A stretch of DNA of 64,000 nt. Source: Candidatus Coprovivens sp. GTDB taxonomy: Bacteria; Bacillota_I; Bacilli_A; RF39; UBA660. A program made the position numbers and the translations under genes. A model generated the notes under the pieces. It had not been told where the DNA came from. It made no database searches and saw nothing but the letters and a program-made list of their open reading frames with translations. Location of the stretch: NCBI GenBank assembly GCA_051892935.1, contig JBJFGS010000025.1:80813-144812 (forward strand), written 5' to 3'. Below, piece after piece: positions 52,075 through 63,966 of this stretch (its first letter is position 1; each line of letters starts with the position of its first letter).

Positions 52075-53850
52075 CTATTCTTTATTATATTTACTATCCA
52101 AGTATTCTTTTAATTCGATAGCTACATTAGTTGGTAATATTTCCTCTACTTCTTGAAGTGTTGCTTCTCTCATTTTCGCTATACTACCAAATTTTTTTAT
52201 TAATTGTTTCTTTCTAACAGGCCCAATCCCTTCAATATCATCTAAAACACTACTTATACTGCCTTTACTTCTAAGTGTTCTATGATAATTTATAGTGAAT
52301 CTATGTACTTCATCTTGCATTCTTGTCAAATAATGAAATACGTTACTCATTCTATCTATATTAATAACACTTAAATCAGAAGAAATCAAGTCATTAGTTC
52401 TATGTTTATCATTCTTTTTTAAACCAACAACCATTATATTAAGATGTAAAAGTTCTAATATTTCTTTTGCAGCTCTAATTTGATTCTCTCCTCCATCTAC
52501 AATAATCAACTCTGGAAGACTTGTTTTATCAACTAAAGCTCTCTGATACCTTCTATATAATATTTCCTTCATCGTATTATAATCATCATTTACATCAACT
52601 GAAACTTTATATTTACGATATTCATTTTTAGCAGGCTTACCATCAATAAATACTACCATACCAGAAACAGCAAAACTACCAAAAAGATTTGAATTATCAA
52701 AAACATCAATTCTATAAATAGAATCCAAACCTAATATCTTAGCTAATTCATCATTAGCTTTACTAGTCATAACTTCATCTTTTTTTATTTCTTCAAATCT
52801 ATTATTCAAATTAAGCTTAGCATTATCAAAAGCCATCTCTAATAAATCTTTTTTAACACCTTTCTGCGGAATAATAAAGTTAGTATTAACTACAGATTTT
52901 AAATTTTCTATATTTAATGAATCAGGAATTAAAATTTCTTTTGGGATCTCATTTCTACTATAAAATTTAGCAATATAATACTCAATATCATCATTAATAT
53001 CTAAATTAATTGGAAATATTTCATTCTTATGATTTAATAACTTACCATTTCTAATAAATAATATTTCAATAGATAAATAACCATTATCAACAAAATAAGA
53101 AATAACATCTCTATTAACAAAATCATGCAATTCGACTTTTTGTTTATCTAAAACAATATCAATATACTCTAATTCTTTCTTTAAATCCAAAGCCATTTCA
53201 AAGTTTAAATTTTCACTATACTTAGTAATTTTATCCATAATCTTATTTCTAAGTATTTCATCATTACCTCTTAAAAAAGATAGTATTTCATTTTCCATAT
53301 CAACTATTTTATCTTTATCTATTTTATTACTACAATAACCTAAACATTCACCAATATGATAATATAAACATACTTCTTTAGGATTACCTTCGCACTTTTT
53401 TAGAGGATATAATCTATTAAGCAAGTTTACTATTCTTCTAGCAGCATAAGCATTAGGATATGGACCAAATAGTTTTTTTCCATCTTTCTTCCTAATATTT
53501 AGATATCTTGATACTTTAAGTTTAGGATATGGATCACTAATATACTCAATATAAGGATAACTCTTATCATCAGTAAGCATAATATTATACTTAGGATTAA
53601 ATTCCTTAATTAAATTAATTTCTATTATAAATGCTTCAAGTTCAGAAGAAGCTACAATATATTGAAAGTCCTCAATTAAACTAACCATTTTCGCCGTTTT
53701 ACCAGTATGAACCCTATTAAAATAAGAAGAAAGTCTTTTATTCAAATCTTTAGCTTTTCCAACATAAATAATATTCCCATTCTTATCTTTCATTTGATAA
53801 GAACCAGGTTTATGAGGTACTAAAGCTAATTTATCTTTAAATTTCATCAT
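52075..53850 (-). CDS. uvrC: excinuclease ABC subunit C
   Basis: GIY-YIG N-terminus (GSYQMKDKNGNIIYVGKAKDLNKRLSSYF), UvrBC and HhH regions. 591 aa. Confidence 0.9.
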   Translation of the reverse strand: MMKFKDKLALVPHKPGSYQMKDKNGNIIYVGKAKDLNKRLSSYFNRVHTGKTAKMVSLIEDFQYIVASSELEAFIIEINLIKEFNPKYNIMLTDDKSYPYIEYISDPYPKLKVSRYLNIRKKDGKKLFGPYPNAYAARRIVNLLNRLYPLKKCEGNPKEVCLYYHIGECLGYCSNKIDKDKIVDMENEILSFLRGNDEILRNKIMDKITKYSENLNFEMALDLKKELEYIDIVLDKQKVELHDFVNRDVISYFVDNGYLSIEILFIRNGKLLNHKNEIFPINLDINDDIEYYIAKFYSRNEIPKEILIPDSLNIENLKSVVNTNFIIPQKGVKKDLLEMAFDNAKLNLNNRFEEIKKDEVMTSKANDELAKILGLDSIYRIDVFDNSNLFGSFAVSGMVVFIDGKPAKNEYRKYKVSVDVNDDYNTMKEILYRRYQRALVDKTSLPELIIVDGGENQIRAAKEILELLHLNIMVVGLKKNDKHRTNDLISSDLSVINIDRMSNVFHYLTRMQDEVHRFTINYHRTLRSKGSISSVLDDIEGIGPVRKKQLIKKFGSIAKMREATLQEVEEILPTNVAIELKEYLDSKYNKE

Positions 53851-54310
53851 CTACCTCCTTATTTAACAAATAATTATAAAGAGCTAAACACCCTTCATTA
53901 ATTTCATTATAAGCAGTATCAAAATCTCCACTATACCACGGATCATCTATATCTTTATTACTACCAGTAAATTCCAATAATAAATGAATTTTATTATCAA
54001 CATCAGGTCCAACTATTTGTATAACATCTCTTTTATTTCTCTGTTCCATTACAATAATATAATTATATAAATTATAATCTTCTCTTTTTATTTGAGTAGC
54101 CTTATGACTTTCACAAGTAACTCCCTCACTAACAAGTTTTTGTCTTGCTTGAGGATACATTTCATGACCAAGTTCTTCTATACTAGTAGCTCTTGATGCA
54201 CAAGTAAACATATAACGTTTACTATTCTTATATATAAGATCTTTAAAAATCATTTCAGCCATAGGACTTCTACAAATATTTCCATAGCATACAAACAGAA
54301 TGTTATACAT
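53837..54310 (-). CDS. low-molecular-weight protein-tyrosine phosphatase
   Basis: CX5R P-loop (VCYGNICRS) and a DPWY Asp loop. 157 aa. Confidence 0.85.
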   Translation of the reverse strand: MYNILFVCYGNICRSPMAEMIFKDLIYKNSKRYMFTCASRATSIEELGHEMYPQARQKLVSEGVTCESHKATQIKREDYNLYNYIIVMEQRNKRDVIQIVGPDVDNKIHLLLEFTGSNKDIDDPWYSGDFDTAYNEINEGCLALYNYLLNKEVDDEI

Positions 54311-54361: not shown

Positions 54362-54577
54362 CTATCTTTTTTTGGCTTTTTTCTTTTCATCAGAAGTGGT
54401 ATAAGAAGTTACGTTACTATGAACCATTTCTGCAAAAAGAGAGTTTGATATTACTTCATTCATATCTTCACCATCCAAAAGCGAATCAACAAATTGTAAT
54501 TCATCATTTTCATCATACCTTTTAACAATTTTCAATCCTTCTTTTAAAGAAATCAACTTTTCTTTTTCATTACTCAT
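54362..54577 (-). CDS. small acidic protein (71 aa), translationally coupled to the giant ORF
   Basis: Its start overlaps the stop of the 2331 aa gene (ATGA). Acidic core with a Lys-rich tail. Confidence 0.4.
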   Translation of the reverse strand: MSNEKEKLISLKEGLKIVKRYDENDELQFVDSLLDGEDMNEVISNSLFAEMVHSNVTSYTTSDEKKKAKKR

Positions 54578-57500
54578 AATGTAACTCCTCCACTCTTTTT
54601 AAGATTCTCTAATTCTAAAACATACTCTTCCATCTTAATAATAGCATCATTTCTTCTTTTCAAAATCAACTCTAATACTTGATCAGCTTTATCTTTACCT
54701 AAAGAAACGGCATATTTTCTAAATAAATCCTTATAATCATCATCACTTAAAAGTTTAACTTTATTTATTGTATCAGTAATAACAGATAAATCAAGATCTA
54801 TTTCTCCGTTCCTATACCTAGTAAATAATATTTGATAAATAGGAATACGATGATTACCATTAGGAGTAAAAGAATAATCTGCATTCAATGTTCTATCATC
54901 ACTTATAAACCTAAACGATTGTTCTTTGTCAATTCCTCTCAAATTATTTGAACTATCTATAATAAAATTTCCAACATAACAATCAAAATTACATAGTAAA
55001 AAGTCAATAACATATTCTCTTAGCAAAGCAGAAGAATAACAATAATCTAACTCTCCACCTTTATTAACCCAATCCTTAAGTACATCAGAATTATCCTCAC
55101 TTATCTCCACTAATTCTTGTTTAGAAAATCTCAATTTACCCCCAATACTCTCAACTCTTACTGAAGTACCAGGAGATAAAAATTCTTGTAATTTAGAAGC
55201 CGCTTCTTGAATATCAGCTCTAAAAGGTTGTAAAGCATAGTTATTTTTATCTACTGCTGGTTTTAGTAAGAAACTATCATCATCAATATCATATCTATAC
55301 ATAATTCCAGACTCTCCCAAATTAGCAGTTTCAAGAGCTACAATTTCTTCTTTAGACATTCCTCTTAAAACAGTTAAAGTTTTTCTAAAAAGACCAATAC
55401 GAGTCAATTCTTTTTTACAGTCAGGTAAATCAACTATTATTTGACAAACAATGCTTTCCATCTCGTATAAAGATTTACACAAATAATCAAAAGATATTTC
55501 ACTATTACGATACTTATCATTCAAAATAGTTAAACAATAATCTACTTTTTCTTTTATACTAACATTTGGATTATTCTCTTGTATCCCATCAAAGAATATA
55601 GAATACATCAACGAATAATTAGGACTAATTTTAAAATCAGCTTTAGCTTTCTTTAAATCTTCCACTTTCTTAGTATCATAAGCATAAACATCAAATTTAA
55701 TAATTGGAACATCAACTCCAAGAAAATCACTAAAATACTTAGCAGCCCTAATTGTAGCCTCATTTGGTACATCACCAACACAAGCCAAAGCACAAGGAAG
55801 CATACCTTCTCTAAAACCAGCTACTTCATTATAAGAACAATGCTTATAACAACTACACTGATTAAGAGCATTCAAATTTGTAAAAGCATTAATATTAGCA
55901 GTTGGTTCAATCTTATAACCACCATGCTCAACAAATAAATCTCTACCATTCATAAAAAGCATAAAACTCTTAGGTAAACTATTAAACAAATAAACAACAC
56001 CATTATTATCTCTATTATTTATAAACCAAAATCCTTTATCGGAAATACTAGATGTAGATAATGTCGAAGCTCCTTCTAACTTAGTCCATAAAGAAGGATC
56101 ATTAATTAACATCTCCTTAAAACCAGACATATTAGTATCATAAGAATAAATCCTATGGACTAAAAAATTAAACTTTTCAGAATTCATTTCAATAATAGTA
56201 ACACCATAAGGATTATTAGGATCACCCTTATCAATACGTTTACTTTTCAAATCCTCAATATTAGTAAGTCTTCCATTAAATTGATAATTATGTAACAATC
56301 TAATCTTAGCAATAATATTTCTCACTTCATCACAATAATCTAAAACTCCTGCATTGTCATTTATAAGTTTAGTCATTAAATCTTTTAATTCATTGATATT
56401 TTGAGATTCTATAATTCTACTCATTAATGTAATAATAGCTACATCTTTCTTATTGTAAAAACATTCTTTAAATATTTGATTAGCTCTTTCCAAACCATAA
56501 CATTCTATAATATCTTCTCGTAAAGTTTTTAGATTTAAATAATTATTTAATTGGAAATTATTAAAATCTTTTGCTAAAGAAGCGATATCAGCATATCCAA
56601 ATAAAGTAGCTAAAACATTCTTAATTTCAGCAATATTATTCGAATTTAATTTAATCATCCAAAAATCTTGTGTTTTCTTTTCATATTGTTTAAGTTCATC
56701 ATATGTTTTAATATCATACAAATTATTGCCTATAATAACTTTTCTAAGATTAGAAATATCAATTTCACTTAATTCATAATTTGAATTACAAATATCAATT
56801 ATTAACTCTTTATACTTATCAAAATTCCTAAAAGCATAATGAACTCTTTTATCATCATTATCAAACAAATTATAACGACAAACAATATCATAATAACTAC
56901 TAAGTAAATTAGCATTATTAGCTTTTATTTCTTTAGATATCACTGAAACAGCAGGTGTATTATATTTAATAACATCAAGTACAAATTCAAGACCAAATAA
57001 CGGATAAATATATTTAACAACATCATAATTAAAAACAGGATTCTTTTCTAAAGTATTTAATTTACCATTAGATTTTAAAATAAATAAAGCATTCTTAAAA
57101 ACAATTTGTAAATCACTATCAAATATTTCAAGATCAATAAATGGTAAAACTGTTACAATCTTTCTGAAAGTAAAACCATTTTCATTAGTCAAATCACTAT
57201 CGTAAGAATTAATAGCATTTGCAAAAACACTTCTAATAACATTATCATTTTTATCTATTAATCTAAAATCCTTCAAATTACTAAGTAAAAAATCAGCAAC
57301 GAAAAAACAATTATTCTTATTATTAATATCAAAATTTGAAAAATGAATAATCTTCAAAACTTTAGAAACCGATAATAAATGTCTATCAATAGTCGAAAAA
57401 TCATCTATATAAGCAAAAGTACGTTCATTCAAAAATTCCAGAGGAAGTTGAAATAAAATTGAAGGAGCAGTTTTTAAAGCAGCCACAACCATTTCCTCAT

Positions 57501-60500
57501 CTATTTCAATTAAAGAAGAAATTCTAGTTAAATAATAACCATTAATAGACAAAGCCTTTAAAACTAATTCCCTATATCTTTCCATAGTATTAGGAAATAG
57601 AAATATTAAATCAGAATTATAATCAAGAACAGTAAAACATAAATCAAAATCTTTCTTTAAAAAATCAGGTAAATAATTATAAACACAACCATTTTTATAT
57701 TCAACCAGCTTTAAAGCAGTCTCTTTATCATTTATCAAATTAGGTATAAAAGTAAATACAATAGGATATTCTAACAAATGATCTTTTGCATACCTAACAA
57801 TAATATCTAAAGAATGATTCGCATATGCAAAAGTACTTTCATCAAGTTTCATAGCATAATCAAGAATATCAATATCATCTTTAAAAGTATCACTTAAGTA
57901 AAAATAAACGCTTGAAGCGGAATCCTTTTTCATTAGTTTAAATATAATTTCTTTATTATTTAAAATAGAAGGAACATACTTATATAAAGAAGGATAATCA
58001 TCTATAATATTTGTAACACTATTAATAATATCTTGATCATTACAATCAACATATTTAATATAAAACAAAGGATCATCTAAAAAATACTTCTTAGCCATAT
58101 CATATTTTTTTTGAATAAATATTTCCAAATCAGTAAAATTATTAGCAAACCACTCTACTACATATTTTTTATCAGAACAAGAATTAAGTATATCATCTAT
58201 AATCGTTAAAGATTCTTTTTCTTTAGGTAATTCATTCAACCTCAATAAAACAGTAAAGTTTTCTTTACTTGAATAGTCAAAATTATAATACAACGAAGCA
58301 TCAATTCCAAAAGAATTAAGAAATTCCTTAAAAGGTCCATCAATATACCAATTATTTCTAAAAAAAATTGTAAAATCATAAATAAAATCATATTTATTCT
58401 CACTATAAATTTCAGAAAGTATATCCTTAAGTAATAAATATAAAGAATCATCAACTTCATTAATTAAATCTTTTCCTATCTGTAATAAAGATTGTATTCC
58501 TAGATTTTTAAGTATTTCCCTATCAACCTCAACGCCATTTTTTAAAGCAACTGAAACAGTATGTGAAGAAGATTTAAAAGAAAAATTATACCCACTCTTA
58601 AAAGCTAATAAAACATAATCATCATCTACATAGCCATGATAATAATCTAAAACACTAGGATAAAAAGAAACAATTTCCTTTACCACTTCAGAATTTAAAT
58701 ATCGAGCATCAATATAACTAAGTATTAAAGGATTTTCCTTTATAAGTTCAACAACTGAATTAGAACTCATATCATAATAAAATAACTTACTACATAATTC
58801 AGGTTGTTCTCTAGCAATAATCTTTAATAAATTAATATCTCTTCTCTGTTCAACATTTAACAATTTTATAATATCAGGATTTTTTCTAACAAACGAAGCC
58901 AAAGAATGATAATTATTTACAATATCAGAAAAAAAGATAATATATCTAGAGTCAGAATCAATTCTACTTCGTAAATACATTAACTCATCATCTGAAAAAC
59001 TGATTTTCTTAATAAAAGAATTAAAATATTTATTAGTAAGAATCTGTTCTTCAGGAAAATAGCCACCTAATAAAGCTTTTTTCAAAACATCTTCTTCAAT
59101 TCTGTCATAATAATATGATATAAAATCATAAAATCCCATTATAACCATTTTTCTTATAAGAAAAATTTTAGTATCAGTATTTATAGAATAAGAATTAATA
59201 ATTTCACGTATCTTATCAACACTTAAATATTTTAACAATTTAGTAAGTAAAACTTTATTATTTATAGTACTAGAAGACAAATCAACATAATTAAAAAGAA
59301 CATATTCATTTTCATCAATTTCATCAAGAAGTACTTTATCACTAACACCAATAATCTTTTGCATTTTTACAATACTATTCTTATTAAAACCAGTTCTATA
59401 CATTTTTAAAATAATACTAGAACTATCATAAATATAAAGACTAGAATTACTCTCAGATAATTTTACAAATAGATTAACAAGTTCTTGTTCATATTCAATT
59501 TTAATAAATCTACTAATAACTAAAGCATTCATAACAGGATGCTTTTTAAACATTTCAAAATTATATCCTGATTCAAATAAAAAATCGATATCTTCATCAG
59601 AAAAATTATTAATTACATCAAGTATTTCAAATCTATTATTTAAAATGTATTTTCTCATCAATAATGAATTAAAAATCGCCGAAGAACATAAATCCTTTGA
59701 ATCAGGTAAATAACCATTCAATAAACTATAATATAAATCAACTGCTTCCTTACAATCATTCCCATAAAAATGCAAATACTTAATTCCTCTATCATCACCT
59801 TTTTTTAAAAGAAATACAACTGAATCAAGAGATAAATCTGTAAAATCATTAATATATGGAAGAATATCATCAAAAGAAATACCGCTTAAAATAGCTTTTT
59901 CAATAACAGAACGAGTAGGATTATTCTTTAATAAATCCATCAAATAACTAGAATCATACTCAATAAATTTTTCTTTTAATATTGGAATATTCTGAACAAC
60001 TAATGGCAAAGAAATATATTTTTCATATGAAATATCTTTTAAACCTATTTTTTCTAAATCAAAATCACTTAAATACAAATTTTCAGTAGCTAATACATCG
60101 TAATGGCCTTCATTAACAAACTTATATATAATATCTTTAGACAAATCACATTTACCATATTTAGAAATAGCTTCTTCATACATACTATATGTAATATAAT
60201 CCAAATAACTATTAACTAAATTTTTATCGTTTGAATAAAGTAAAGGCAAATACATTCCCTTTTGTACAAACGCCTCAATGAAAACATTTTTATTAGTATT
60301 ACGAGAAAGATTAATAGCAAAATCATCCACTGTAAGACCATTATCAATAAGTTCTAAAGCAACAGGTAAAGAAATAGAAAAGCTACTATAAGAACGATAT
60401 TTATCCCAATCACGAGAAACAACACAATATAAAAAATTAATTTCCTCAGAATTCCTATAATCATCTTTTAACTGATATATACCACTTTTAACAAGTTCTA

Positions 60501-61569
60501 AAACATAATTAAAACAATTAATATCAGTCAATACCGAAGTCAAACCACCTATTAATGAATAATCATTATTTACTACAAAATATCTAGCAAGAGGAAAAGA
60601 ATCTAAAATATTAGTAAAAGAGTTAATTCTTTCTAAAGAAATATTATTATTTTGAATAAAGTTTATAACATCCTCATTAACAGCTTCTTTAGAAGCATAC
60701 ATTAAAGCATCAATTTTACCATCCTGTAAAAGATTTAATAATAAAGGAGAACTTTTTTTATAAGACCCATCATATAAAGAATAATCATAAAAAGAAAAGT
60801 CAGAATAATTAACTAAATCAGCAGAAGGATTAGAAGCTAAAACTAAAGCTTTACTACCTCCTATATCAATAAATCTTTTTACAATATTTTCATCATTCAA
60901 AATTGAAATATCATGATCATTCATATACATAGTAATTATATATTCAAAAAAAGCCTTAAAATCAAAATCACATTTAGATAATTCAATTAATAAATTAGAA
61001 AAATCAGCTTTAAAATTATTAGAATATCTAAAATATTTTCCCAAATATTTATAATTGTTATTGGAAATCATTAAAGCTGCAAGCTTAGGACTAATACTAT
61101 AAGAATGTTCAACTAACAAATCGACTTTATCAGGATAAAGAATATATATATCATATTGAAAACTACCTAAAATCTCAAATTTTTTCAAAATATCATCTAT
61201 AGAAACACCATTATTCAAATAATAATTTAAGTCATTTAAATCAAAAATAGCTCCATGAACATCAGTATATTCCTTATCACGATAAAAGTAATCTAATAAA
61301 GAATAATAAAACTCATCCGAAATGAAAAGTTTAGAATAAAATAAGTTATCAAGCCCATTATCAAAATCTAATTCACTAATAAATTCTTCATCACCAATAT
61401 ATTTATCAACAAATAAGAAATAATCATTATGAATTTTATCTCTAAGAGTATTCAATATATAATCAATATCTCTTTCTAAATAATCAGTATCAATATTATA
61501 TTTTTTAAATATTTCAAGCAAGGAATCTTCCTCTAACAATTTCAAAAATTTAATAACATCTTCGTGCAT
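54574..61569 (-). CDS. giant cytoplasmic protein (2331 aa), Asn/Tyr/Asp/Leu-rich, with a C-terminal region carrying a kinase-like catalytic-loop signature
   Basis: Uninterrupted 6996 nt ORF. RBS AAAATAGGTG and a TATAAT upstream. No signal peptide and no P-loop. The motif FDCYVGNFIID-x7-GIDKE lies about 136 residues from the C-terminus. Confidence 0.7.
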   Translation of the reverse strand: MHEDVIKFLKLLEEDSLLEIFKKYNIDTDYLERDIDYILNTLRDKIHNDYFLFVDKYIGDEEFISELDFDNGLDNLFYSKLFISDEFYYSLLDYFYRDKEYTDVHGAIFDLNDLNYYLNNGVSIDDILKKFEILGSFQYDIYILYPDKVDLLVEHSYSISPKLAALMISNNNYKYLGKYFRYSNNFKADFSNLLIELSKCDFDFKAFFEYIITMYMNDHDISILNDENIVKRFIDIGGSKALVLASNPSADLVNYSDFSFYDYSLYDGSYKKSSPLLLNLLQDGKIDALMYASKEAVNEDVINFIQNNNISLERINSFTNILDSFPLARYFVVNNDYSLIGGLTSVLTDINCFNYVLELVKSGIYQLKDDYRNSEEINFLYCVVSRDWDKYRSYSSFSISLPVALELIDNGLTVDDFAINLSRNTNKNVFIEAFVQKGMYLPLLYSNDKNLVNSYLDYITYSMYEEAISKYGKCDLSKDIIYKFVNEGHYDVLATENLYLSDFDLEKIGLKDISYEKYISLPLVVQNIPILKEKFIEYDSSYLMDLLKNNPTRSVIEKAILSGISFDDILPYINDFTDLSLDSVVFLLKKGDDRGIKYLHFYGNDCKEAVDLYYSLLNGYLPDSKDLCSSAIFNSLLMRKYILNNRFEILDVINNFSDEDIDFLFESGYNFEMFKKHPVMNALVISRFIKIEYEQELVNLFVKLSESNSSLYIYDSSSIILKMYRTGFNKNSIVKMQKIIGVSDKVLLDEIDENEYVLFNYVDLSSSTINNKVLLTKLLKYLSVDKIREIINSYSINTDTKIFLIRKMVIMGFYDFISYYYDRIEEDVLKKALLGGYFPEEQILTNKYFNSFIKKISFSDDELMYLRSRIDSDSRYIIFFSDIVNNYHSLASFVRKNPDIIKLLNVEQRRDINLLKIIAREQPELCSKLFYYDMSSNSVVELIKENPLILSYIDARYLNSEVVKEIVSFYPSVLDYYHGYVDDDYVLLAFKSGYNFSFKSSSHTVSVALKNGVEVDREILKNLGIQSLLQIGKDLINEVDDSLYLLLKDILSEIYSENKYDFIYDFTIFFRNNWYIDGPFKEFLNSFGIDASLYYNFDYSSKENFTVLLRLNELPKEKESLTIIDDILNSCSDKKYVVEWFANNFTDLEIFIQKKYDMAKKYFLDDPLFYIKYVDCNDQDIINSVTNIIDDYPSLYKYVPSILNNKEIIFKLMKKDSASSVYFYLSDTFKDDIDILDYAMKLDESTFAYANHSLDIIVRYAKDHLLEYPIVFTFIPNLINDKETALKLVEYKNGCVYNYLPDFLKKDFDLCFTVLDYNSDLIFLFPNTMERYRELVLKALSINGYYLTRISSLIEIDEEMVVAALKTAPSILFQLPLEFLNERTFAYIDDFSTIDRHLLSVSKVLKIIHFSNFDINNKNNCFFVADFLLSNLKDFRLIDKNDNVIRSVFANAINSYDSDLTNENGFTFRKIVTVLPFIDLEIFDSDLQIVFKNALFILKSNGKLNTLEKNPVFNYDVVKYIYPLFGLEFVLDVIKYNTPAVSVISKEIKANNANLLSSYYDIVCRYNLFDNDDKRVHYAFRNFDKYKELIIDICNSNYELSEIDISNLRKVIIGNNLYDIKTYDELKQYEKKTQDFWMIKLNSNNIAEIKNVLATLFGYADIASLAKDFNNFQLNNYLNLKTLREDIIECYGLERANQIFKECFYNKKDVAIITLMSRIIESQNINELKDLMTKLINDNAGVLDYCDEVRNIIAKIRLLHNYQFNGRLTNIEDLKSKRIDKGDPNNPYGVTIIEMNSEKFNFLVHRIYSYDTNMSGFKEMLINDPSLWTKLEGASTLSTSSISDKGFWFINNRDNNGVVYLFNSLPKSFMLFMNGRDLFVEHGGYKIEPTANINAFTNLNALNQCSCYKHCSYNEVAGFREGMLPCALACVGDVPNEATIRAAKYFSDFLGVDVPIIKFDVYAYDTKKVEDLKKAKADFKISPNYSLMYSIFFDGIQENNPNVSIKEKVDYCLTILNDKYRNSEISFDYLCKSLYEMESIVCQIIVDLPDCKKELTRIGLFRKTLTVLRGMSKEEIVALETANLGESGIMYRYDIDDDSFLLKPAVDKNNYALQPFRADIQEAASKLQEFLSPGTSVRVESIGGKLRFSKQELVEISEDNSDVLKDWVNKGGELDYCYSSALLREYVIDFLLCNFDCYVGNFIIDSSNNLRGIDKEQSFRFISDDRTLNADYSFTPNGNHRIPIYQILFTRYRNGEIDLDLSVITDTINKVKLLSDDDYKDLFRKYAVSLGKDKADQVLELILKRRNDAIIKMEEYVLELENLKKSGGVTL

Positions 61570-61657
61570 AATTAAACACCTATTTTCTTATATAATTATA
61601 GCACAAGTAAAATGATAAAAAAAACAATATATGTTATAATTAAAACGAGGTGACAAC

Positions 61658-62011
61658 ATGAAACTTTTAAAAGAATCAACAATCGAAATAAAAAAATCCA
61701 AATTCATTGGATTATGTTACGAAATAACATCAGTTGAAGAAGCAAAAGAAATAATAGAAAATTTAAAAAGAGAACATAAAAAAGCACGTCATATCCCATA
61801 CGCCTATAAAATCAATAATACTGCTAAAAAGACAGATGATAAAGAACCAACAAATACTGCAGGTTTACCAATATATAATATTTTAGAAAGAAAGAATCTT
61901 AATAATCATTTAATAGCTGTAATAAGATATTTCGGTGGAATAAAACTAGGTGCCGGAGGATTATTAAGAGCATATAGTGAAGCTGCAAACGAAGCAACTA
62001 AAAATTTATAA
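61658..62011 (+). CDS. YigZ/IMPACT-family (UPF0029) N-terminal-domain protein
   Basis: Matches the IMPACT N-domain pattern (KSKFIG, HIPYAYK, TNTAGLPIYNIL, RYFGGIKLGAGGLLRAY). Only 117 aa, with no C-terminal DUF1949 part. Confidence 0.65.
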   Translation: MKLLKESTIEIKKSKFIGLCYEITSVEEAKEIIENLKREHKKARHIPYAYKINNTAKKTDDKEPTNTAGLPIYNILERKNLNNHLIAVIRYFGGIKLGAGGLLRAYSEAANEATKNL

Positions 62012-62058
62012 AATAAAACAAAAGAAAAATACTATATCAATAATCGATATAGTATTTT

Positions 62059-62583
62059 TCATACCATTACGTCCCTTATGTCCTTTCTCGGTCTAGCCTT
62101 TGGGAACTGATCTGGTAGACCCACACCTACGCATGAAACAGTTTCATAAGGGACATTAAGAACCTCTTTAATTTCATTATTGATAAGGTTAGTATTACCT
62201 ATCCAGATAGTACCAAATCCCATATCCGTATACGCAAGAATCATATTTTCAATACAAGCACCAATAGAAATAATATCCATATCACGATTCTCAACCACTT
62301 CGTTATCGATAAAAACCATAATTAAATGGGGAACGTTCCGAATAATACCCGCGGTATGAGGACCGGTATGCCCGGGAATATTTCTAGTCTTGTTTTCTAA
62401 TAAATCGGCAATAGAACTTTTCTCCGATGCACTCAGTATTTTAAACTTCCAAGGTTGTCTATTGTGGGCACTTGGAGCTTTTATACCAGCAAGAATACCT
62501 TTCATCAAGGCTTCTTCATCTAATATGATACTCTTATATTTGCGTATACTCCTGCGAGATTCAATCACATCACTGAGTAACAT
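62059..62583 (-). CDS. nitroreductase-family protein
   Basis: Begins RRSIRKYKS...APSAHNRQPWKF. The local GC content is visibly higher than in flanking genes. Confidence 0.75.
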   Translation of the reverse strand: MLLSDVIESRRSIRKYKSIILDEEALMKGILAGIKAPSAHNRQPWKFKILSASEKSSIADLLENKTRNIPGHTGPHTAGIIRNVPHLIMVFIDNEVVENRDMDIISIGACIENMILAYTDMGFGTIWIGNTNLINNEIKEVLNVPYETVSCVGVGLPDQFPKARPRKDIRDVMV

Positions 62584-62748: not shown

Positions 62749-63966
62749 ATGGCAAAAACTATAAGAATCGCTGGAAAAAATTTTAACGCAAATTTCTTTT
62801 ATACTTACATGAGAAAAAACTTTGGTGAATCATTTGCACACAGTAGTCTTTCATTTGAAAAAGAATTCGAAGAAAGTAAAAAACTAGCTCAAAGGCTAAG
62901 TGAATTCATGTCTCAAAGTAATTGTGCTTATGCTACTAAATTAGAAAATGGTTCTAAAGAAGATTTAGAATTATTAAAAACAAGATACAGTGAAATAGCT
63001 ACAGTATTAGAAAAAATATATTCTGTACCAAAAGAAAGATATATCCTAGACGAAGATGAAGAAGATTATTCACTATGTATCGATGATTTCATACCATATT
63101 TTAAAGGAGCTGTAAGACCTTATCGTAATAAATACGAAATAGAACAAGCTCGCCTAGCAGGCAAATTAACTGATGCTCCATACGAAAATGAATCTCTAAT
63201 CGATAAAGTAAAAGAATTAGCAGACCTAGTAAGTTTAAAAGTTGCTGCTGATAAAAAAGCATATAATTTAAAAAAAGGAAATAACGAAGCATATGCTTAC
63301 GCTTTAGGTTTAAAATCAATAGGTATTCCGGAAATAATTGAAATAAATGCAAAAGTAAATAAAAATTCAGGAATTCATACTGGATTCAAAACAACAGACA
63401 ACGACATAATAAACGCTCCATTCAAGACATGTCCTAAAGAATTAGTTCCAATAAAAATGCAAGAGCTACTTCATAATTATAATTATGTTTGGGCGCAAGG
63501 CATCCCTCCATTTACTGAAGGTGTCGATGACGAAAAACAAAAAATTGCTCATTTAAGAGCTGTTTGTGATAGAGAAGCAAAATTCCATATTGCATTCGAA
63601 AGAATACATCCATTTGAAGATGGTAATGGTCGTACAGGAAGAATAATTCTAAACGCTCATTTAGTCGCAAACGAACTAGCTCCTGTTTTAATTACTCCAG
63701 AAATGCGTGAATTCTATATAGAATGTATAGATACAGACAACTATCAAGCTTTAAGTCAGCATATAATGTCAATATCAAGTGTATGCTTAACAGAAATGGT
63801 TTCACAATATCGTAGAACAAAAGGTATAGATCCAGATGAATTAAGAATTTCCGATGTTCAACAAAAAGGTCATCATACAGCAGTCAAAGTATACATACCT
63901 GAAACACAACAAGAAAAAACTGCTCAAGGCGACGAGGATGTTAAAATATATCGAATAAAAAGATAA
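62749..63966 (+). CDS. Fic-domain protein with a roughly 290 aa N-terminal extension
   Basis: Canonical Fic motif HPFEDGNGRTGR near residue 300 of 405. Terminator AAAGTGTTAG-aaaat-CTAACACTTT followed by a T-run at 63966-63997. Confidence 0.8.
   Translation: MAKTIRIAGKNFNANFFYTYMRKNFGESFAHSSLSFEKEFEESKKLAQRLSEFMSQSNCAYATKLENGSKEDLELLKTRYSEIATVLEKIYSVPKERYILDEDEEDYSLCIDDFIPYFKGAVRPYRNKYEIEQARLAGKLTDAPYENESLIDKVKELADLVSLKVAADKKAYNLKKGNNEAYAYALGLKSIGIPEIIEINAKVNKNSGIHTGFKTTDNDIINAPFKTCPKELVPIKMQELLHNYNYVWAQGIPPFTEGVDDEKQKIAHLRAVCDREAKFHIAFERIHPFEDGNGRTGRIILNAHLVANELAPVLITPEMREFYIECIDTDNYQALSQHIMSISSVCLTEMVSQYRRTKGIDPDELRISDVQQKGHHTAVKVYIPETQQEKTAQGDEDVKIYRIKR

Follow-up and report, generated by a model that had tools for sequence, protein, structure and literature searches.

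Introduction

Kinases of the PI3K/PI4K, HipA and CtkA fold group have been described in several bacterial and phage settings. HipA and CtkA are bacterial Ser/Thr kinases of 300-440 aa, the one a toxin and the other an effector; in E. coli K-12 hipBA, which we used for comparison, the gene for the toxin of about 440 aa is preceded by that of an HTH antitoxin, and the gene for CtkA, too, lies on a mobile element (PMC5536186). Phages carry a kinase module in MuF or minor-capsid 'polyvalent' effectors (PMC5512222; PMC5576092), and the polyvalent-protein kinase has a Glu ahead of strand 2 and, in the final N-lobe strand, a Gln (Iyer et al. 2017, PMC5512222). Small open reading frames downstream of phage MuF toxins have been proposed to be immunity genes (PMC5576092). 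Effectors of this type, borne by phages or conjugative elements, are fused to MuF or other virion or transfer domains. In polymorphic toxins, a conserved N-terminal trafficking region is joined to a variable C-terminus and an immunity gene lies downstream.

Here, we analyse a 64-kb stretch of DNA (the window) from 'Candidatus Coprovivens', whose lineage is common but uncultured in the human and animal gut. It contains a giant gene for a protein with an identical NCBI entry, 'DUF4116 domain-containing protein [Candidatus Coprovivens sp.]', and our analysis offers a predicted function at the level of fold, that of a kinase, for a conserved 272-kDa protein previously known just as 'DUF4116'.

A giant gene with a translationally coupled partner

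The giant gene occupies positions 54574..61569 of the window on the reverse strand and encodes, from an ATG start, a protein of 2331 aa with a pI of 4.8. An earlier note on this DNA had described the frame as too long to have arisen by chance and as overlapping, through an ATGA, a small acidic ORF of 71 aa, and the coordinates and translations of both frames bear this out. At the stop-codon frequency of 0.091 per codon on the same strand, the probability that 2331 codons in a row stay open is about 1e-96, which excludes a chance origin. The note had also allowed that the frame might be an assembly artefact or belong to a known housekeeping family. It is not an artefact, because intact orthologues of 2228-2342 aa are present in independent assemblies, and more than 15 such assemblies, from 'Candidatus Coprovivens' and related gut Bacilli, contain the gene whole. 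No known housekeeping family matches the protein.

The -10 element and ribosome-binding site reported upstream are both present: an extended -10 element, TGcTATAAT (61595..61603, reverse strand), which is a match to consensus in AT-rich DNA where a promoter scan is uninformative (62 sites found versus 69 expected), and AGGTG (61577..61581, reverse strand), read from the sequence 7 nt 5' of the ATG. The protein has no transmembrane segment and no signal peptide, as had been stated (best 19-residue Kyte-Doolittle mean, 1.36), and in this respect it looks cytoplasmic. The remark that it has no P-loop is literally true, in that it contains no Walker A motif, but a kinase glycine-rich loop is present. 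Scans of the whole protein and of its quarters against Pfam, NCBIfam, PADLOC and PHROGs gave DUF4116 as the sole match, and searches of PDB sequences with the protein alone and with profiles returned nothing significant, their only hints being a helix motif like that of phycobilisome linkers and an alignment to the catalytic loop of a protein kinase (BRSK2, E 1.6). The window contains no tRNA and no Rfam feature. In the layout that emerges, degenerate helical repeats take up some 1470 residues and are followed by a C-terminal cassette in which two modules, Z and A, precede a helical linker and a kinase domain.

The partner gene (54362..54577, reverse strand; 71 aa) starts within the stop of the giant gene, the overlap being read as tta TGA for the giant's stop and as ATG agt for the partner's start. 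The partner, of about 70 aa throughout, is obligate and translationally coupled to the giant, as the note had supposed from the single overlap. Its Shine-Dalgarno sequence, GGAGGAG (54585..54591, reverse strand), is embedded in the last codons of the giant gene (those for S-G-G-V-T-L and the stop), and a purine-rich element of this kind lies 8-12 nt 5' of the partner ATG in all 12 loci inspected. A partner follows the giant gene with an overlap of 1 or 4 nt in loci L001-L003, L005-L014, L016, L018-L020 and L022-L024, and is kept even in loci where all other neighbours differ; the sole complete giant gene without one (L021) is on a short contig, with no downstream ORF found. None of the kinase-only genes examined has a partner downstream. 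The protein itself is acidic, as described (pI 5.1), with a basic tail, and shares a conserved N-terminal motif, M..EKEKL.SLK.GL.I.KKY; it has no HTH match. One weak partner match, P0204, is located away from any giant gene and is probably spurious.

The C-terminus is predicted to be a kinase

We modelled the last 591 residues (1741-2331) with AlphaFold2, using an alignment of 87 sequences from an exhaustive HMMER search, and obtained a model with a pLDDT of 94.2 and a pTM of 0.88; this superseded a poor earlier run with nine close homologues (pLDDT 62). By this model and by Foldseek, residues 2076-2331 (module B; 54577..55344, reverse strand) adopt a kinase fold of the PI3K/PI4K-HipA-CtkA type, so that the enzymatic C-terminal region suggested by the note acquires a predicted identity. 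Against the PDB, Foldseek matched class I, II and III PI3Ks and Vps34 (the structures being PI3K-gamma, PI3K-alpha, PI3K-C2alpha and Vps34), mostly with probabilities of 0.9-1.0 and E values of 4e-5 to 5e-4, as well as the H. pylori Ser/Thr kinase CtkA (3akl_A; probability 1.0, target-normalised TM 0.50). Matches in BFVD were Mycobacterium phage Onyinye gp16 (E 3.7e-9) and proteins of tailed phages labelled 'PI3K/PI4K catalytic domain'. The Pfam models PF00454 (PI3_PI4_kinase) and PF07804 (HipA_C) do not match the giant protein even at E<=10. Because the alignments to the PI3Ks and Vps34 span 430-760 columns and the kinase module has about 250 residues, they must reach into the part of the query that precedes the kinase. 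A five-helix linker with a weak phycobilisome-linker-like motif (residues 1961-2075; 55345..55689, reverse strand; helices 221-331 of the model) is packed there between module A and the kinase.

The residues needed for ATP and Mg2+ binding and for phosphotransfer, K2103, D2196, N2201 and D2214, are retained, as judged from the alignments. A Gly-rich loop, G2085-E-S-G2088, stands before strand 1 of the domain and is invariant in orthologues, as is the ATP-binding K2103 in the strand at 358-364 of the model. The catalytic loop reads N2194-F-D2196-C-Y-V-G-N2201, the metal-binding D2214 lies in GIDKEQSF at the start of the activation segment (the DFG equivalent), and the domain ends in a long C-terminal helix that terminates in GGVTL. 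The motifs GESG, LLKPA, LLCNFDCYVGNF and GIDKEQSF are all invariant among orthologues. Beyond the giants, over 90% of kinase-only relatives retain the K, D, N and D, with the Lys in 25 of 26 and the equivalent of D2214 in 26 of 26, the latter being found in 27 of 36 sequences that combine modules A and B. The catalytic-loop His of the family-wide DxHxxN, present in 16 of the 26 kinase-only relatives, is replaced by Tyr in the window protein and by either Tyr or Phe throughout the clade of giants, and the alpha-C Glu (E2122) varies between E, K and Q in the same clade. Because of these two departures, the catalytic mechanism may be altered or weakened. Two relatives, P0030 and P0037, have clearly degenerate kinase motifs. 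As the closest structural neighbours of the model by E value are lipid kinases, a non-protein substrate is also conceivable.

Modules Z and A form a second conserved region

Immediately before the kinase and its linker lie two further conserved segments. Module Z (residues 1471-1740; 56350..57159, reverse strand) has no Pfam or PHROG match and occurs together with module A in relatives whose N-termini differ, phmmer matches to residues 1470-1740 falling in A-containing proteins of 836-1700 aa; its conservation peaks at 0.81 over residues 1501-1550. The core of module A (residues 1741-1960; 55690..56349, reverse strand) is modelled as an alpha/beta domain with a pLDDT of about 95. Across 45 divergent sequences it conserves H1805, T1836/S1838/S1840, D1877, H1882-G, N1914-E1915 and R1920. 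Searches for module A in Pfam, PHROGs, NCBIfam, PADLOC and PDB sequences gave no match, no weak match recurred when 18 of its members were scanned singly against Pfam (E<=10), and a word-index profile search with it returned two proteins.

Several candidate identities for module A were considered and set aside. Its order of elements (strand with H1805, helices, strand with S1838xS1840, two strands, loop, strand with E1915) and its YNE bear what we take to be a mere resemblance to the topology of ADP-ribosyltransferases (ARTs) such as PARP and diphtheria toxin, in which the catalytic triad is H-Y-E or R-S-E: hhalign against the exotoxin-type ART domains of relatives gave a probability of 0.7%, the 18 members have no ART Pfam match, an ExE motif is missing and conservation does not extend to R1806. 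A cysteine protease or caspase-like domain (HG...ACxG) does not agree with the lack of conservation of C1926 and C1930 in divergent members, and for deaminase, PP2C, GHMP, LAS peptidase and other families proposed from motifs, either the motif order or the conservation is unfit. Z-A is thereby delimited as a second conserved domain with a catalytic-looking set of residues, for which we found no relatives of a known kind.

A fast-evolving N-terminal repeat region

The first 1470 residues (57160..61569, reverse strand) consist of degenerate helical repeats that evolve quickly, with a column identity of about 0.4-0.6. They are specific to the giants, the phmmer matches to this region being confined to giants of full length and to a small number of shorter proteins that may be partial. 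Repeats of the DUF4116 type (Pfam PF13475) fall at residues ~870-1400 (57370..58962, reverse strand), where they score 70.6 bits in 4-5 stretches, against a gathering threshold of 24.9. A self-BLAST of the protein revealed no internal repeats and profile-profile self-comparison was needed to bring them out, pairing residues 883-946 with 1202-1264 and 1170-1200 with 1246-1276. An alpha-solenoid model of DUF4116 exists (PMC8078820), and from the DUF4116 matches and the repeat signals we infer that the N-terminus may be an alpha-solenoid scaffold.

A large kinase family with phage members

The kinase belongs to a large unannotated family, represented by 867 clusters at E<=1e-3, that phages attach to MuF head proteins. 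Among relatives, the kinase and module A are also found apart from each other, and some kinase-only relatives are fusions to MuF or minor-capsid domains, four of them with ART toxin domains as well. Examples are P0046 and P0060 (MuF and kinase), P0084 (minor capsid, kinase and ART) and Onyinye gp16 (kinase and ART), the last of which gives weak, sub-threshold matches to HipA_C and PI3_PI4_kinase. Because phages fuse these kinases to head proteins, in some cases together with an ART, the family is probably a widespread class of enzymes that are injected to take over the host. It is missed by Pfam, NCBIfam, PHROGs and PADLOC, and its exposure adds a kinase family of hundreds of clusters beyond current annotation.

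Genome context and evolutionary rate

The giant gene is single-copy and occupies a fixed chromosomal position between housekeeping genes, with a divergent Impact_N/YigZ gene on its 5' side; among the related contigs recovered, all those that span this region have it at the same locus. Downstream of the partner are a gene for a low-molecular-weight protein tyrosine phosphatase (LMW-PTP; 53837..54310, reverse strand) and uvrC (52075..53850, reverse strand), and the order Impact_N / giant / partner / LMW-PTP / uvrC recurs. The earlier note was right that the two downstream genes share the giant's strand here, but the linkage is absent in L013, L014, L016, L020 and L022, and we rejected a functional link with them, the arrangement being mere synteny of closer relatives that is gone in distant loci. 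No mobile-element genes adjoin the giant gene, PADLOC gave no match for it, and IMG/VR and PLSDB hold no relatives of it. In some genomes, a Fic gene occupies a variable slot two genes upstream.

The giant evolves fast relative to flanking genes: its identity is 34-57%, compared with 81-92% for uvrC at the same locus, a contrast by which it stands out as a candidate for a role in conflict or for one that is unusually plastic for other reasons. The divergence is uneven, with a column identity of 0.6-0.84 over the C-terminal 830 residues versus about 0.5 for the N-terminus, and distant relatives show 38-42% identity in the C-terminus versus 26-27% in the N-terminus.

Discussion

We favour, with confidence that stands about midway between doubt and assent, a reading in which the giant and its partner are a vertically inherited two-gene chromosomal unit of Coprovivens-like gut Bacilli (RF39/'Tenericutes'-type), comprising a cytoplasmic scaffold kinase and an obligate small subunit. 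Some 1500 residues of rapidly diverging alpha-helical repeats would lead into the compact, conserved C-terminal cassette, where the kinase, to go by its conserved residues, would be active and would phosphorylate one or more protein substrates recruited by the repeat scaffold. Because of its invariant H/S/D/H/E/R set, module A may be a second catalytic or substrate-handling domain that works together with the kinase. The gene arrangement suggests that the partner is made 1:1 with the giant and could bind it, whether as an adaptor or as a subunit that regulates or inhibits it; its strict coupling makes this 70-aa protein a simple experimental handle.

Other readings draw on parts of the same evidence. 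The giant could be a phage-derived conflict system, a host-captured injected kinase now serving in anti-phage defence or superinfection exclusion, with the repeats sensing an invader, the kinase and module A acting as effectors and the partner as a brake. The use of this kinase family by phages on MuF head proteins, some beside ART toxins, speaks for such an origin, as do the divergence of the giant relative to uvrC and the Fic gene that appears nearby in some genomes. We nevertheless consider it unlikely, since the giant is a single-copy gene at a constant housekeeping position, rather than in a defence island, in every contig that covers the region, PADLOC does not match it and mobile-element genes are not adjacent. 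A toxin-antidote pair of the HipA type, in which the kinase would phosphorylate an essential target and arrest growth until neutralised by the partner, would account for the fold group, the HipA-like catalytic loop and the coupled small acidic protein directly downstream, for which the immunity ORFs proposed behind phage MuF toxins (PMC5576092) offer a precedent. A protein of 272 kDa with 1700 scaffold residues is, however, unlike any known toxin of a toxin-antitoxin pair; an HTH antitoxin and an autoregulatory operator are not evident, the locus is inherited vertically and is not mobile, the giant gives no HipA_C match, and the partner is downstream whereas HipB is upstream. We judge this account quite unlikely.

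The substitution of the catalytic-loop His, the variable alpha-C Glu and the degenerate versions in P0030 and P0037 raise the further question of whether the giant is a non-enzymatic structural or scaffold protein with a pseudokinase domain. The invariance of K2103, D2196, N2201, D2214 and the Gly-rich loop across orthologues at 34-57% identity runs counter to this, and we hold it to be improbable. The likeness to a toxin-immunity pair, with the giant as polymorphic toxin or secreted effector, drawn in the earlier note from the large protein with a C-terminal enzymatic region and a small ORF next to it, is already contradicted by the distribution of conservation. The note had looked to homologues for a C-terminus that alone varies, and the opposite is seen, the C-terminus being the most conserved region. 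There is moreover no signal peptide, transmembrane segment, LXG/WXG, Rhs, MuF or other trafficking, secretion or delivery domain, orphan toxin/immunity cassettes are absent downstream, and the locus is a fixed chromosomal one, not phage or plasmid. This explanation we regard as extremely improbable.

Several described systems bear comparison with the scaffold kinase that we favour. The PI3K core (class I-III and Vps34) gives the best structural matches, with a common bilobal form, Gly-rich loop, beta-3 Lys, D-x-x-x-x-N and metal-binding Asp, and in both a helical domain is packed ahead of the kinase; the DRHxxN of PI3Ks finds the exact DxHxxN spacing in the wider kinase family. Unlike PI3Ks, to which its identity is 9-14%, the window protein has no PF00454 match and no C2, RBD or ABD, and the giants carry Tyr or Phe for His. 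Phosphoinositide substrates would not be expected in the bacterium. CtkA (JHP940; PDB 3akl) has the highest target-normalised TM-score, 0.50, and the catalytic loop of E. coli HipA, ...ATDGHAKNFS..., aligns with ...CNFDCYVGNFI... of the giant, although neither protein has a significant sequence match to it (hhalign probability 2.4%). Both are also far shorter, and the giant's partner is not HipB-like; where hipBA has its antitoxin gene upstream, the giant has the divergent Impact_N/YigZ gene there and its partner downstream. Polymorphic toxins show the reverse distribution of conservation, with a conserved small ORF standing in the giant's locus at the position of their immunity gene. The phage MuF and minor-capsid effectors have the same kinase module, the Glu and Gln described for the polyvalent-protein kinase corresponding to GxGE and KQE in the giant, although Pfam scans of the giant returned no polyvalent-kinase model. 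The giant differs from them in lacking a MuF domain, in being non-phage, syntenic and vertically inherited, and in adding Z, A and 1500 residues of repeats.

In overall layout, the giant resembles eukaryotic PIKKs (TOR, ATM, DNA-PKcs) and PI4KA, which likewise exceed 2000 residues, begin with a long stretch of helical repeats, in PIKKs a HEAT-type alpha-solenoid, carry their PI3K-fold kinase at the very C-terminal end and have small obligate partners. Against this stand the absence in the giant of a match to FAT or FATC (PF02259, PF02260), which in PIKKs lie before and after the kinase, the extra alpha/beta module before its kinase, the lack of any PIKK among the top 50 Foldseek structural matches and the fact that the nearest relatives of its kinase are in phages, and the PIKK-like layout is most likely convergence. 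A bolder proposal, to which we attach a low probability, is that the giant is a bacterial counterpart of PIKK/PI4KA-type kinases in layout and perhaps in working principle, with a scaffold that would present substrates to a helical-plus-kinase core, a small subunit, and a new Z-A enzymatic domain built around the invariant H/S/D/H/E/R site. If true, the 867-cluster family to which it belongs would link the head-protein effectors that phages inject with proteins for signalling or defence encoded on the chromosomes of gut bacteria.

Results

The 2331-codon frame of the giant protein (54574..61569, minus strand) and the overlapping 71-codon ORF of its partner (54362..54577, minus strand), both described in an earlier note made from the sequence alone, were borne out by ORF calls and by the junction sequence, where ATGA is shared by the giant's TGA and the partner's ATG, and the Shine-Dalgarno element GGAGGAG stands 7 nt before the partner start, within the giant's final codons. 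GC content is 21-31% per 2-kb window, mostly ~25%. With an expected stop-codon share of 9.1% of codons on the giant's strand, the chance probability of a 2331-codon open run is ~1e-96, which rules out a chance origin. The frame is not an assembly artefact either, because full-length relatives (2228-2342 aa, 34-57% identity) have been recovered in numerous independent gut assemblies, labeled as uncultured Bacilli, Tenericutes, Erysipelotrichaceae or Firmicutes and sampled from human, rabbit, chicken and rumen. An identical protein is recorded from a 'Candidatus Coprovivens sp.' MAG of class Bacilli; the family has no members in IMG/VR or PLSDB. The promoter and ribosome-binding site proposed earlier are present as read (TGcTATAAT and AGGTG, 5' of the giant's ATG), a generic promoter scan being uninformative in this AT-rich DNA. 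Neither a hydrophobic segment nor a Walker A motif was found in the giant, matching the claim of no TM segment and no P-loop. LMW-PTP (53837-54310, minus strand, with its own TATAAT/AAGGTGA signals) and then uvrC (52075-53850, minus strand, its start overlapped 14 nt by the LMW-PTP gene) do follow on the same strand. The earlier description of the sequence is thus correct. The LMW-PTP P-loop reads C-Y-G-N-I-C-R-S, with the Ile of the tyrosine-phosphatase type in place of the Thr that marks the arginine-phosphatase (YwlE) type.

In closer genomes, the gene order is Impact_N (YigZ, divergent), giant, small ORF, LMW-PTP, uvrC and rnf genes. Identity is 81-92% for uvrC and 75-91% for Impact_N versus 34-57% for the giant and 25-59% for the partner; judged from these values, the giant and partner are a unit evolving several times faster than the flanking genes. 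At one such locus, L024, identity to the window is 34% for the giant, 65% for LMW-PTP, 81% for uvrC and 82% for Impact_N. In more distant genomes (loci L013, L014/L016, L020 and L022), the small ORF is the sole neighbor kept; therefore, the giant and its partner together form the functional unit, LMW-PTP and uvrC being a matter of local synteny.

The partner, with a conserved N-terminal motif and a basic tail, belongs to its own family of 64-76 aa proteins and matches no family in Pfam, NCBIfam, PADLOC or PHROGs. Every complete-giant locus, the most divergent included, has it directly after the giant with an overlap of 1 or 4 nt, except the short contig L021, and an SD-like element lies within the giant's last codons at all 12 loci whose junction was read. 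It was never found after the kinase-only genes examined. Such translational coupling implies co-production, and the partner may be a regulator, inhibitor or adaptor.

Pfam detects in the giant DUF4116 repeats alone, around residues 870-1400, a domain modeled as an alpha-solenoid (PMC8078820); profile self-comparison adds other degenerate repeats within residues 1-1470. An exhaustive HMMER search queried with the C-terminal 591 residues returned 867 cluster representatives at E<=1e-3 and divided this region into two independently occurring modules: A (about 1741-2075), found with and without the kinase, and B (about 2076-2325), which stands by itself, in tandem or as part of many other architectures. 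The conserved stretch 1471-1740 travels with module A in proteins having unrelated N-termini. A helical linker motif, K-Y-x-N-x-E-I-S-F-x-x-L (residues ~1985-2040; window ~55450-55620, minus strand), weakly but repeatedly matches the N-G-E-I-S-V-K-E-F-I motif of the phycobilisome core-membrane linker ApcE (profile versus PDB, E 0.0013 for the whole chain, each single stretch being weak).

AlphaFold2 gave a compact, confident model of residues 1741-2331 (pLDDT 94.2, pTM 0.88; 87-sequence alignment). Module A is modeled as an alpha/beta domain whose conserved polar residues across 45 divergent sequences are H1805, T1836/S1838/S1840 on one strand, D1877, H1882-G, N1914-E1915 and R1920; R1806, C1926 and C1930 are not conserved. 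The sequence methods tried, including Pfam, PHROGs and PDB profile searches, place it in no family. Its strand order and H / SxS / YNE spacing recall those of ADP-ribosyltransferases (PARP, diphtheria toxin), an assignment we do not make because comparing its profile with those of exotoxin-type ART domains turned up no similarity.

For module B, Foldseek against PDB returned PI3K-gamma, -alpha, -C2alpha and -delta and Vps34 (probability mostly 0.9-1.0), as well as the H. pylori Ser/Thr kinase CtkA (TM 0.50 on target). Mapped on the model are a Gly-rich loop (G2085-E-S-G2088), K2103 on the following strand, a K-Q-E hinge (2150-2152), a catalytic loop (N2194-F-D2196-C-Y2198-V-G-N2201) and D2214 within G-I-D-K-E-Q-S-F. 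These are invariant in orthologues, and K2103, D2196, N2201 and D2214 are retained in >90% of kinase-only relatives. No curated model in Pfam, NCBIfam, PHROGs or PADLOC recognizes the domain. In a viral structure library, the matches were tailed-phage 'PI3K/PI4K catalytic domain' proteins and Mycobacterium phage Onyinye gp16, in which the kinase spans about residues 150-400 and an ART domain residues 1158-1332. Other relatives join the kinase to a Phage_Mu_F head-morphogenesis protein (P0046, P0060) or to minor-capsid and ADP-ribosyltransferase exotoxin domains (P0084); ART domains are also present in P0086, P0129 and P0142. These architectures agree with phage 'polyvalent' or MuF effector proteins, whose kinase carries Glu ahead of strand 2 and Gln in the final strand of the N-lobe (PMC5512222, PMC5576092), both shared by the giant's kinase.

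Human gut metagenomes frequently contain a 567-aa kinase-only protein, encoded in an unremarkable chromosomal setting (L048 7450-10402 and about 20 near-identical loci, L039-L072). A histidine-phosphatase-superfamily gene (His_Phos_1) lies 15 nt 5' of it, a second kinase-phosphatase adjacency in the family besides LMW-PTP and the giant, and a 187-aa ORF without Pfam match lies 13 nt 3'.

Divergent from the giant by 88 bp is Impact_N (YigZ/UPF0029; 61658-62011, plus strand), a position kept in all closer relatives. Eukaryotic IMPACT regulates the pair of GCN1, a giant HEAT-repeat protein, and GCN2 kinase; since L016 lacks this juxtaposition, synteny is probably all that it reflects. A 405-aa Fic/DOC-domain gene (62749-63966, plus strand), located two genes upstream of the giant, occupies a variable slot between thioredoxin and nitroreductase genes, a site that may be a minor hotspot of accessory or defence genes: the Fic/DOC gene recurs in L001/L002 (59% identity; L001 5552-6766), is replaced by a 935-aa protein without Pfam match in L003 (4055-6862), and no gene is called there in L006 (3953-4559). 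The region's only terminator-like hairpin (62024-62060, minus strand; 17-bp AT-rich stem, then a T run) lies just after the nitroreductase gene, upstream of Impact_N. Between about 14 kb and 62 kb, a stretch whose genes nearly all lie on the minus strand, GC skew is strongly negative; before 14 kb, where the plus strand carries the genes, it is near zero. Neither a tRNA gene nor an Rfam family reaches threshold anywhere in the 64 kb.

Discussion

The feature is real and out of the ordinary. In the best-supported reading, the giant would be a cytoplasmic scaffold enzyme whose conserved C-terminal cassette holds a predicted atypical kinase of PI3K/HipA/CtkA fold beside a second, probably catalytic domain of no assigned family, and which would work with an obligate small subunit. 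The earlier likeness to a polymorphic toxin fails the defining tests of that class: the C-terminal part is the more conserved rather than the variable one (0.6-0.84 for residues 1500-2331 vs ~0.5 for 1-1500 among orthologues), reversing the expected polarity, and neither a delivery domain nor cassettes are present.

Alternatively, the phage-type kinase and the fast evolution of the unit would favor a defence or conflict role. A HipA-like toxin-antidote role is another alternative; the D-x-H-x-x-N of the wider kinase family has the same spacing as PI3K DRHxxN and HipA D-G-H-A-K-N, and hhalign matches this very loop to that of E. coli HipA in an alignment that is not significant. The protein may instead be a pseudokinase scaffold. 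In the giant clade, Tyr or Phe stands in place of the catalytic-loop His, and the alpha-C Glu varies. The cassette does occur in pseudokinase form, since P0030 and P0037, which carry both modules, have plainly degenerate kinase motifs (e.g., NFNCSYKKL; in another example, ADLAVDPDVF where the giant has CNFDCYVGNF). Activity of the giant's own kinase is likely, though not assured.

A scaffold enzyme of this kind also has a layout that parallels that of the eukaryotic PIKK/PI4KA giants. However, the giant lacks the PIKK features FAT and FATC, and its nearest relatives come from phages; we therefore treat the likeness as apparent convergence. The kinase fold was known already; the family, the giant's architecture and the partner are new.
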